64,000 nt of DNA from Escherichia coli. GTDB lineage: Bacteria; Pseudomonadota; Gammaproteobacteria; Enterobacterales; Enterobacteriaceae. The DNA lies in NCBI RefSeq assembly GCF_045037415.1, contig NZ_CP173438.1. One strand, given 5' to 3'. Positions 1 through 3,000 of the stretch are shown piece by piece. Position numbers: made by a program. Each line of letters starts with the position of its first letter. Within the stretch, counting starts at the first letter, position 1.

Positions 1-3000
1 GCCTCTTTTGACATCAGCATTTTTATCTCTTTTCATAACCATCACTTTGATGGGTGTAGATTGATAAAATGTTTTTTGATTTCAATAATTGAATCAAGTA
101 TGGGTTTGAATAATGAAAAATCGATAGTTTTTCTATTTTCCCTTACTATATAAGTAGCAAATCTATCTTTTCCAAATGTAGTAGAACTGTCATGATTATT
201 GCTTTTATCGAAGCTTTTTCCATTATACTTCATTTGCAAAACTTTTGGTTCAAAAAAATCCTCTAGTGAAGAATAGTTATCCCCTGGTAATAACGGAGTA
301 AAAAGAACATATAAATTACTCTCTAAGTGATAAAACGCCCCTTTTCTAACATCCTCCGCTTTTTTTGGTAGATGCGAATAATCCTTTATTATTTGATTTA
401 TGAAGTCAGATGGCCCTGTGTCATTATCTAATAAAATTATCACTGGATTTTTAGGAGGCTGTTTTTCATACGCTTTACAAAGTAAACCATGTCGTCTGAA
501 AAACCTCGAATAGTCTGCAGCTCCACCAGACAAATCGAGAAAATATTTTTTCTTGTCATTGGTTTTAAATAAATTAACTTTTAACACTCTATTCTTTGTG
601 TTTTTTTCCTCTCTAACTAACTGAGGGTAATCCAAAAACAAAGAATCAATTGCACACTTAAGATAAACCGGGTCAGTTTTCCCTTCTGTTAAGATTGTTA
701 TTTGCTCATTTCCATAGAAATTTTTATAGTATAGGAATTTGCTGTATGCTTTCTCTCTGGAGTTAAGTCTCTGCTTAAAATCCAACCCAAATCCTTTAAC
801 CACATATCTCTCAGGACGCGCATTTTTCTTTGCTTCCACATTATTATATTTATCAAGCATATCGATAAATGCAAATCGCCCTTCTAATTCACTAAGGGTG
901 CCCTTTCTATGTTTTCCATCTTTCTCAATAAGTGTATACGAACCTTCAAAGTATAAAGAATGCGCCATCGCTCTTGTATTCTTTATATACTCTCTGCTTA
1001 CATTTATTTTTTTATTTACAGTTAAACCTGTAACTTGCTGTCTTGATGTACACCTAGACACTCTGTTTTTATTATGGTTTAAAGTGAAGCCTGCACGATG
1101 AATTTCTTCTACCAATATCTTACCTGGTTCGTTTTCTTTCTCATTAGAAACTAATGCATCAGGGATGTTTTTTTTGTTTGTTGAAAACGTAATGTCATCT
1201 GCATAGCGGCTGTAACTACAACCATATGTGACTGCTAGCTTTGATAATCTGAAATCTAAAATCCTACAAATAAGATTAGTTATTACTGGAGAACAAGGGC
1301 TTCCTTGCGGAAGCGATCCATCCAGGCAGGCTATCTGCGCAATAATGGTTGCAACATTTGGATGTAACTTGAAATTTTGGTTTGCAATAAAATATCCTCG
1401 CACGCGACCAAAATTAAAGGATGGGAAGAAATTCTCAATATCAATATTAAATACAATATTTTTATCTCGATGCCTCTCAGCATTTGTAATTATAGTTTTA
1501 TTCTTCTCAAAACCATGTGATACATTTTGTTTAATATTATTTTTTGCCCAAATTTCTTCCTGGCATATATATAGAAGTTCAGAAAGTCGTTGTTGAATAT
1601 CTTTCAGTTTTTCATCAGGAGCAAAGATCTCCCGCTCTCCTCCAGACTTTTTCTTTATAGTAAATTTTTTGTATTGATTTTCTGGCCTTATTCTATACAA
1701 AACATTAGTCAGAAATGTAACTTTAATCTGAAGCAAATCAGCCAGTTCAAATTTGTTACAACAAGCCTGCAGCCTTGCCAGATAGGTAGGTTTAAACATA
1801 ACAGTAAATTCCATTATTGATTATGTTAATGCACATGCAGGTACTCTTACGCATTTAACGGTGACGCCAAGATGACTTGACGGCAGTCAGAGGGCGAATA
1901 CTCCCGACCTTGTTAACACTGATTGCGATACCACAACCAACAAATCTACCTGCATGTGCCGTATTAAATTAGCATAGTCATCATATAACTCAAGCCCCCA
2001 ATCAATTTTTTTCAAAATCCTCAATAAGTTATAGATGGTTTGCGTTCTGTTCATTTCTGGCATCAGAGTGATGATTAGGCAAGTTAGCTGGGAAAATTTA
2101 TCCGGAGTATATACAAAGAAAGTAGTCAGCCCAGTTGAATCATCTAAACAAGACCAATTAACTAATTTATTTAAATGAAAAATAATGCTTTTGAGCTAAC
2201 CAATTATGCACTTAAGCTAAATTTACCGTTTTTGGGGCTAGCCCAACATCGAGGGCGCATAAGCTTTAGCCCACTTTTACTTTCCTGTTTTCTTTAGTAA
2301 CAGAAGGTTAACTATCAAATATTTTTGTTGGGCTATGTGGGCTAACAGTTTTCATATTTACGTGTTTTTTTATTCTTCTCCGGTTTCCGTTTCAGATACC
2401 GGAGTAAACAACAGCGTATAAGCCCAGGGACGTGCATGCTTGAGGTGTCTCAGCCGTGGCATACGTATCAGCCATCCCTCCACGCTGGTGGACTTTTTGA
2501 GCATTCCAGCCTCATGAAGGATTCTGCCGGCAGTATCCTTGCTGAGAGGAGTAGAACCTACGCCCTTCGCATTACGAATGCGAGCTAACTCCAAAATGAG
2601 TACGAACATGAGTACAAAAAAAATATATCATTAAATGTAGTATAAATTTCAATCAGATACAGCAAAAATTACAATTCAACGTCTAATTCCGCTAATACTA
2701 CTCTGGCGGTTAATAACGAGCCATTATGTGAGTTGCACGTAATGGCTTTTTTACGCCTGCTACGCGTCTTCTTTCAATTCTGAGTTACCAAAACTCATAA
2801 TCAGACTCCTGACAATATTAACAATGCAGCTTTTATGTGATAACAATCACAGTGCATTAACCGTTCAAGAGTTTGTCATGAAAAAAACATTTACCTTCAG
2901 CCTGTTAGCAATTGTCTTTGCAAGCCTGTTGAGTGCTTGTGTTCCCCACCATCATCACCGCCACAGCGATGGCCCTCGTGGTCCTGCGCCCTCCGGTAAG

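Follow-up and report, generated by a model that had tools for sequence, protein, structure and literature searches.

In the satellite phage P4, which is integrated beside a tRNA gene by a P4-type integrase, primase and helicase are fused in the alpha protein, and the C-terminal domain of this protein recognises octamer iterons, TGTTCACC, that occur both as direct and as inverted copies. The ori and crr sites of P4 do not lie directly after the alpha stop codon. The origins of the Staphylococcus aureus pathogenicity islands (SaPIs) start directly downstream of rep: an AT-rich centre is flanked on either side by two or more iterons, the two groups point in opposite directions, and the C-terminal winged-helix domain of Rep binds these iterons (PMC9371898). 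The origins of the phage-inducible chromosomal islands (PICIs) of Escherichia coli have the same layout, and EcCICFT073's pri-rep-ori segment was shown to replicate (PMC6092414). The gene order in SaPIs and E. coli PICIs is int-alpA-pri/rep-ori, followed by accessory genes (PMC9371898, PMC6092414). Here, we analysed the flank between an Ec67-family retron and dhaR in a 64,000-nucleotide stretch (hereafter, the window) of an E. coli chromosome of the sequence type 131 (ST131) type (contig NZ_CP173438.1). The interval is likely the decayed right end of a defence-gene island of ~28.3 kb, inserted by a P4-type integrase in the last 12 bp of ychF and fixed in ST131.

A repeat cluster in this flank, as well as its counterparts beside four homologous genes or gene remnants, resembles the PICI and SaPI origins in layout, as judged here from sequence alone. 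Unlike the described elements, the ST131 interval retains only ~56 initiator codons and 4–7 iterons, with no int, alpA, or packaging genes. Compared with P4 alpha, the helicase part of the family found here is DUF927 (Pfam) and the iteron sequence is different; no capsid-size or regulatory genes of the P4 kind were seen.

Insertion junction and attachment sites at the island end

Retron-free strains aligned with the window from position 2675 onward only, and the match begins within the final 12 bp of ychF. On its right side, the island ends with the attR core TTCAACGTCTAA (2675–2686, plus strand), and the same 12 bp are present at the empty site, attL, and attR. The core encodes the end of YchF (F-N-V-stop), i.e., the last four codons of ychF. 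Four sequences were aligned, namely the island-free site, the window, the end of ychF in the ST131 strain ZH063, and another island that occupies this place, and exactly TTCAACGTCTAA was common to all. In ZH063, TTCAACGTCTAA ends an intact ychF, whose protein accession is the same as in island-free strains, and is followed by the gene for a 391-aa P4-type integrase; a second copy, corresponding to window positions 2675–2686, is located 28.3 kb from the first. Strain H6 carries an independent 32.6-kb island with other cargo and the TTCAACGTCTAA core at both ends. A sequence-only reading of the flank had suggested that the retron island meets the backbone here, and the alignment agrees: the flank did not align end-to-end with the backbone of retron-free strains, and the junction falls at 2675–2686, where the last four ychF codons are duplicated as a 12-bp direct repeat. 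No published description of this E. coli ychF island was found in the literature that was searched.

Beyond the core, positions 2687–2877 (plus strand) are backbone, 94–100% identical to the island-free ychF–dhaR interval, and comprise the ychF downstream region, with the original terminator hairpin and T run (2719–2747), and the promoter region of a lipoprotein gene. The island supplies ychF with a substitute terminator, and the first ~90 nt of its left arm show 84–85% identity to the sequence that natively follows ychF in K-12-type strains. The ychF–dhaR backbone itself occurs in two forms, with either the ycgV autotransporter gene or the gene for the 58-aa lipoprotein (compared as window 2675 onward and L010/L011 6129 onward). 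The two diverge precisely at the stop codon of ychF, where the integrase also acts, so that one of them may have arisen by an old insertion or deletion there.

The 127-bp island end at 2548–2674 is common, at 76–88% identity, to ~38 genomes with other cargo, including a DEAD-box helicase set, RADAR, TerB, and another ABC-3C system. It contains two direct ATGAGTAC repeats (2596–2603 and 2608–2615, plus strand), which are candidate arm-type sites of the island integrase and are invariant in six island ends that are otherwise 76–88% identical. Only four copies of ATGAGTAC are present in ~60 kb of the ST131 island and its flanks, and four in 45 kb of H6; in both islands, two copies are located near each island end, and all have one orientation. 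The remainder of the arm (2616–2674, plus strand) is an AT-rich spacer in which the alignment reveals a conserved block, TCAAT-N3-GATA (2649–2660), which we would guess to be a host-factor site. P22-type arm sites (TGTCCCA) were absent here. Overall, the ends resemble the attL and attR sites of P4-family tyrosine integrases at gene 3' ends: a short core is duplicated, the 391-aa integrase with its Arm-binding N-terminus lies beside the target at attL, both arms carry arm-type repeats, and the element provides a new 3' end and terminator. The target differs in being a protein-coding gene, ychF, and not a tRNA gene, and the likeness is one of DNA sequence only.

The H6 and ST131 ychF islands also have a common internal core that encodes a helix-turn-helix (HTH) protein, a 309-aa second tyrosine recombinase, RadC, and a DUF2787 protein. 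The defence cargo differs, with Hachiman, DEAD-box, and TerB sets in H6 versus the retron and ABC-3C in ST131.

A fragment of a tRNA gene adjoins the arm repeats. In a BLAST search against phages, 2547–2582 matched the attP core of P22, ES18, and SfV, and the segment 2548–2583 (minus strand) is identical at 34 of its 36 positions to the annotated tRNA-Thr(CGU) gene thrW. The fragment spans the anticodon stem-loop, variable loop, and T arm and is devoid of acceptor and D arms. It is not a complete tRNA, as only 36 nt match and the cloverleaf was recognised neither by Rfam nor by ARAGORN, which reported no tRNA over 1800–3000. Sister ychF islands contain the entire thrW 3' half up to the CCA end and, ~180 bp further in and on the same strand as the tRNA half, a decayed P4-type integrase gene. 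The protein identity of this remnant to the attL integrase is 43–54%, and the region shows 70–73% DNA identity to integrase genes beside genuine thrW; thus, the island end contains a thrW-type integration module in inverted orientation. In ST131, homology to the sister islands ends at 2544–2548, inside the T stem. The fragment is like the thrW attachment region used by P22, SfV, ES18, and CP4-6-type islands in that it corresponds to the segment within the P22 attP core, and unlike it in being located off the thrW locus, incomplete, truncated, and without a working integrase beside it.

A primase-helicase remnant followed by an iteron array

The GC-richer stretch (2370–2609) had been described as a 240-nt segment, open on the minus strand, with no recognisable motif. 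The 79-codon open reading frame (ORF; 2609..2370, minus strand) does exist, and the second part of that description was incomplete, since the stretch contains the tail of a DUF927 primase-helicase. This homology was revealed only by an exhaustive HMMER scan of 1.84 billion representatives, in which ORF residues ~21–76 matched, at 45–58% identity, the very C-terminal ends of two kinds of protein, of 711 and 919 aa. DUF927 is present in both, and the 919-aa one also contains a Zn-ribbon primase domain and Toprim. The match to residues 656–710 of P0012 had 58% identity (E = 1.2e-8), and that to P0014, which carries DUF927, Toprim, and Zn-ribbon domains and is related in sequence to PDB entry 8tch, deposited under the name ‘Pathogenicity island protein’, had E = 7.5e-6. 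The match is limited to the C-terminal tail, outside the DUF927 domain itself, and several short remnants also matched this region in the HMMER scan.

Positions 2370–2546 (minus strand; stop codon at 2370–2372) are thus annotated as the 3' remnant, i.e., the last ~56 codons, of a DUF927 primase-helicase gene (pri-rep). No complete catalytic domain is present: homology starts from ORF residue ~21–22 and is preceded by the tRNA fragment and the arm repeats. The start of the primase homology lies within a few nt of the point where homology to the other island ends stops (2544–2548). The 79-codon ORF appears to be chimeric and spurious, with its first 20 codons reading through the arm repeats and tRNA sequence. 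By analogy, the remnant would correspond to the origin-binding part of the primase-helicase. In an intact relative (L025), the gene order is tRNA-Pro, integrase, AlpA, small genes, and the DUF927 protein, and another primase remnant with its own iterons is present in an island at the real proBA–thrW locus (L026).

Other assignments of this segment were tried. Variants of the 79-aa ORF at 86–89% identity, found in a word-indexed protein search, proved to be the same DNA with indels, and all were clonal copies. An integrase remnant at 2370–2547, suspected from the sister islands, was rejected because tblastn of the attL integrase against the flank gave no match. Sensitive blastn and tblastx searches of 1966–2560 against sister-island ends yielded only a single match, 19 nt long and of questionable significance. 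Public data contain many short remnants of the C-termini of DUF927 primase-helicases (P0010, P0011, P0013, and P0016–P0036), and, where examined, they retain adjoining iterons; it seems that the end of the gene and the origin have repeatedly survived the erosion of these elements. The remnant coding sequence also contains, beside the deletion junction, an imperfect palindrome of 36 bp with GCCGGC at its centre (2511–2546).

The cluster of AGCCCA(A)C motifs in direct and inverted orientation, which had been pointed out from the sequence, is clearly non-random. TAGCCCA is found on the plus strand at 2239 and 2267 and on the minus strand at 2329 and 2338; these four copies fall within 106 bp, and the 64-kb window contains six in total (6.2 expected by chance). 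With one mismatch allowed, seven sites were found in 2100–2350 (0.375 expected per 250 bp). Among the functions proposed earlier for the cluster, a protein-binding array gives the best reading, while a recombination site can be set aside because the junction is 330 bp away, and RNA structures found no support, as described below.

Read on the minus strand, the primase stop codon is followed by 26 nt, the repeats GTTAGCCCA and CATAGCCCA, 52 nt at 23% GC, and then the opposed repeats GTGGGCTAA and GTTGGGCTAGCCCC. We interpret 2100–2346 (minus strand) as the putative relic of an iteron-type origin of a PICI/P4-like satellite replicon, since its layout is common with four homologues. Iteron set 1 (2329–2346, minus strand) comprises GTTAGCCCA and CATAGCCCA at 9-nt spacing and aligns, in the same position and orientation, with GTTGTCCCA (L025), GTTGTCTCA (L029), and GTTGCCTCA (L026). 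The AT-rich centre (2275–2326; 52 bp, 23% GC) is a candidate DNA-unwinding segment, and equivalent AT-rich segments are present in L025, L026, and L029. Iteron set 2 (2234–2274, plus strand) is inverted and consists of TAGCCCAAC (2239), TTAGCCCAC (2266), and a palindromic partner, GGGGCTA (2234–2240). A degenerate outlying iteron, CAGCCCA (2127–2133), lies beside GTATATACAAA (2107–2117); read on the minus strand, the degenerate copy adjoins TTTGTATATAC. This outlying block (2107–2135, plus strand) is weaker than the other sets; it resembles the terminal iteron and TTTTGTATATATATA block with which the origins of L025, L029, L026, and L023 end, and in intact elements the array closes with a TTTTGTATATATATA-like block.

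The comparison of homologues covered 450 nt downstream of the stop codon. In all four homologous genes or remnants (L029, L025, L026, and L023/L024), the stop codon is followed by iterons, ~45–52 nt of AT-rich sequence, and inverted iterons. The iteron words differ: GTTGTCTCA occurs 12 times in L029, GTTGTCCCA eight times in L025, and GTTGCCTCA four times in L026 and 13 times in L023/L024. The distance from the stop codon to the first iteron is 26 nt in ST131 and 15–28 nt in L026, L025, and L029. The ST131 array is located directly downstream of the initiator reading frame and has at least two opposed iterons on each side of the AT-rich region (two at 2329–2346 and two or three at 2234–2274). 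No intact cognate initiator stands alongside, as only the last ~56 codons remain, and no initiator paralogue was found at at least 65–70% DNA identity elsewhere in the carrier genomes; thus, the origin is classed as a relic and orphaned, and it is presumably inactive. By analogy with characterised initiators, the lost protein would have bound the TAGCCCA iterons. The support for an origin lies in the architecture that ST131 appears to have in common with distant homologues, not in conservation of the ST131 sequence.

Scans for similar arrays elsewhere returned little: a metagenome scan for the motif architecture found the same island only, and a scan of viral contigs for paired iterons gave 120 mostly random matches, none with a DUF927 gene. 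One IMG/VR contig (L126, 3900–4390) has an AT-rich segment surrounded by ~10 ATAGCCCAC/ATGACCCAC repeats, one copy on the far side being inverted; its iteron word is similar to that of ST131, and it has no detectable DUF927 homologue. Within the attL integrase gene (L004 16263–17438), there are three occurrences of the iteron words GTTGGGCTA and TAGCCCAC (~0.05 expected), in the codons for ELGY, QLAH, and SPT. This is probably a coincidence, because the window cluster showed no similarity to integrases in tblastn. The flank also has a direct repeat of 24 nt, which is imperfect (2153–2176 and 2199–2222) and the first copy of which is identical at 18 of 19 positions to the sequence abutting the tRNA 3' end in a sister island (L012 5962–5980); this repeat may be a second breakpoint scar.

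The retron, its predicted promoter, and the carrier genomes

The reverse transcriptase (RT) gene of the Ec67-family retron is located at 42–1814 (minus strand; E = 4e-188 against ‘Retron Ec67 protein’ chains), and the two arms of a perfect inverted repeat of 13 nt, a1/a2 (1831–1843 and 1947–1959), delimit its non-coding RNA. The sequence-only reading had placed a possible promoter for the retron transcript at ~1965–2000. The location is plausible, and the elements are probably different from those named: the hexamers TTGATT (2005–2000) and TATGAT (1985–1980) are only 14 nt apart and are not conserved in related retrons. When the sequences upstream of a1 were aligned among three Ec67-family types (ST131, a P2-like prophage copy, and MS 115-1), ATGnTAnnTTA was the only conserved block. 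The retron promoter is probably the extended -10 element TGCTAATTT (1966–1974, minus strand), with a predicted -35-like TTGAGT (1988–1993, minus strand) that is separated from it by a 16-nt spacer and aligns with TTGTTT and TTCACA. The last T of TGCTAATTT is 6 nt before the a1 repeat, and the predicted start (~1959–1961) coincides with the 5' end of a1. The conservation of TGnTAnnTT 6 nt upstream of a1 covers three types only, and the hexamer is weak; a consensus promoter scan called no promoter on the minus strand there. Homology to the MS 115-1 retron ends at 1978. This retron is like Retron Ec67 (Retron-Eco2) in its RT, msr 5' region, and a1/a2 repeats; it is located here in a ychF island versus a P2-like retronphage, as in strain OkiPb01700, and the two have nothing in common upstream of the -10 region.

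On the other side of the flank, the gene for the 58-aa lipoprotein (2878–3054) is followed by dhaR. Among 5,426 complete E. coli genomes, ~510 have the interval 1815–2880 at ≥99% identity; many carry the label O25b:H4-ST131, and those identifiable by name are ST131. The composition of the interval is uneven, with GC contents of 25–40% over 1966–2370 and 2600–2700 and 51–55% over 2400–2600. The NCBI annotation (PGAP) has no feature under 1966–2680 in the listed ST131-type genomes, except for an IS1 transposase in EC5931, and a Pfam search of all small ORFs of the interval gave no meaningful match, which bears out the earlier statement that there is no convincing coding sequence between the retron RNA and the lipoprotein gene. 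The IS1 copy in EC5931 (NZ_CP104592.1) adds ~777 bp within the equivalent of 1966–2680 and was found in this one genome; its presence inside the flank indicates that the region tolerates disruption.

Three annotated genes directly beyond the retron RT, to the left of window position 1 in the same island, encode an ABC-3C system (L001 6454–9969). The retron and ABC-3C pair is confined to the clonal island (510 genomes). Strains with the ABC-3C genes and without the retron, which would delimit the retron module, were sought and none was found. An RT scan using one genome per species returned three distant relatives, which were of no use for flank comparison.

Proposed history, alternative explanations, and meaning

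The observations are probably best explained by the following history. Positions 2687–2820 are the original ychF downstream region with its terminator, 2675–2686 the attR core, and 2584–2674 the putative integrase arm with two ATGAGTAC repeats. At the island end, a satellite-like element (tRNA-int-alpA-primase/helicase-origin-cargo) would have been nested in inverted orientation, with the tRNA piece at 2548–2583 as its marker. We infer that one internal deletion of roughly 5 kb in ST131 fused the tRNA T arm to the last ~56 primase-helicase codons (2546–2370), and read-through across this fusion would create the spurious 79-codon ORF. Positions 2346–2100 would then be the origin of the nested replicon, with opposed TAGCCCA iteron sets around the 23%-GC segment and the initiator lost. 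The retron and the neighbouring ABC-3C system would occupy the cargo position downstream of this origin, and the retron would be transcribed from the extended -10 promoter TGCTAATTT (1974–1966), starting at the a1 repeat. Every sequence feature noted earlier was found where it had been reported. Of the earlier interpretation, the junction, the protein-binding array, and the location of the promoter stand, while the hexamers, the regulatory RNA, and the recombination site do not; the tRNA-Thr fragment, the arm repeats, the primase-helicase tail, and the position of the cluster at the origin site of that gene family had not been recognised.

Several points weigh against this history. The array has only 4–7 iterons versus 8–13 in intact elements, and no intact initiator with TAGCCCA specificity was found. 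The winged-helix, origin-binding nature of the C-terminal domain would follow from analogy with SaPI Rep and P4 alpha; the AlphaFold model of this domain was of low confidence (predicted local distance difference test, pLDDT, 47) and was not used. No diverged copy of 1966–2547 was found in any collection searched, i.e., the 5,426 E. coli genomes, plasmids, phages, JGI metagenomes (by motif architecture), and 5.8 billion proteins, and the ST131 sequence thus offers no conservation test. In addition, the -10 hexamer TAATTT is weak (3/6) and was not called by a simple consensus scan, ~115 bp (1985–2100) have no assignment, and the distance of only 3 nt between the thrW half-site and the arm repeats of the ychF integrase is not accounted for.

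It is conceivable, though unlikely, that the thrW fragment is no relic of a nested satellite and instead belongs to the attachment region of the ychF island itself, or that it can serve elements specific for thrW as a secondary landing site. The fragment is conserved at the end of every ychF island examined, 3 nt from the integrase arm repeats, the order of arm, tRNA 3' half, and integrase resembles an unrecombined attP, and the two integrases are paralogous (43–54% identical in the arm-binding domain). However, the integrase adjoining the thrW half is a pseudogene in every case seen, the arm repeats of the thrW-side integrase (GTACCCCC type) are unlike ATGAGTAC, and the fragment is truncated and mutated in ST131. 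We regard as quite improbable the explanation that the repeat cluster is an operator array for a transcription factor, e.g., an island HTH protein, controlling the retron or a neighbouring promoter rather than an origin. Such an array would fit the clustering far beyond chance, the placement of the repeats, which share a strand with the retron transcript and lie 270–390 bp upstream of it, the near-perfect palindrome at one site (GGGCTAGCCC), and the several HTH proteins encoded on the island. It would leave unexplained why the cluster starts 26 nt past a primase-helicase stop codon and why the 9-nt spacing, AT-rich centre, and opposed sets recur, with another repeat sequence each time, behind all the homologous primase genes that were tested, a pattern that fits initiator-specific iterons and not a retron regulator; moreover, nothing similar was found upstream of other Ec67-type retrons.

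The chance that the ORF, or its internal 44-codon form from the ATG at 2504, is a real small protein whose retained tail still binds the adjoining iterons seems very small. Its frame is intact in ~510 genomes, but all copies are clonal, with 99.9% DNA identity, so that the intact frame carries no information. Gene callers predicted both the 79-aa and 44-aa forms (P0001 and P0005), whereas PGAP did not call the ORF and it has no Pfam match; GAGG precedes the ATG at 2504 by five bases, whereas there is no Shine-Dalgarno sequence before the ATG at 2609. Short C-terminal remnants of the primase family are common in databases, and the conserved part is predicted to be helix-helix-strand-strand in a low-confidence model; against this, the first 20 codons are integrase arm repeats and a tRNA fragment, and some assemblies have frameshifted versions. 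Equally hard to credit is a structured or regulatory RNA, whether a terminator, a pseudoknot, or a small RNA from the tRNA-like piece, in the cluster, the GC-richer stretch, or both, which the sequence-only reading had entertained. On the minus strand, the folding of the 126-nt cluster is somewhat better than that of shuffled sequences (z = -2.4; matched by 1 of 200 shuffles), the tRNA-like anticodon/T-arm fragment is present, and the A-B-A'-B' order of the repeats formally permits a pseudoknot. Nevertheless, this order makes nested helices impossible, z is only -1.9 on the plus strand, the covariance-model scan of 1–6000 returned no Rfam family at E ≤ 1, and ARAGORN gave no tRNA. The minus-strand stem is not followed by a U tract, there is no promoter evidence, and covariation is untestable as every copy is identical; the tRNA piece has no acceptor or D arms, and differences between islands break its stems.

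Compared with these alternatives, decay of a nested satellite-like replicon at the end of a ychF island is the reading that we prefer. The interval is then ordinary, explainable mobile-element debris, and current understanding is not overturned. We see only a slight chance that the orphan origin, which lies directly upstream of the retron, is, with or without the mini-ORF, a live decoy or trigger that captures the initiator of an invading satellite or phage of matching specificity; if so, the captured initiator would block replication of the invader, or would open the DNA and alter retron expression. A less exotic variant of this idea concerns the compound end, in which a thrW half-site and a ychF core lie 90 bp apart, each with its own paralogous integrase: it might be the trace of a change of integration target, or might even now permit one.

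For a defence island carried by ~510 of the 5,426 complete E. coli genomes, the boundary and the site of attachment are now placed exactly, which aids its annotation, and the spurious ORF and the supposed regulatory RNA can be dropped as leads. The presence of iterons directly after the stop codon of DUF927 primase-helicase genes is a rule that could help to annotate origins in similar elements. The retron and ABC-3C system would be located in the cargo position of a decayed satellite-like replicon that is itself nested inside a second integrative element, and the locus would illustrate how defence genes persist while the vehicles that brought them erode.

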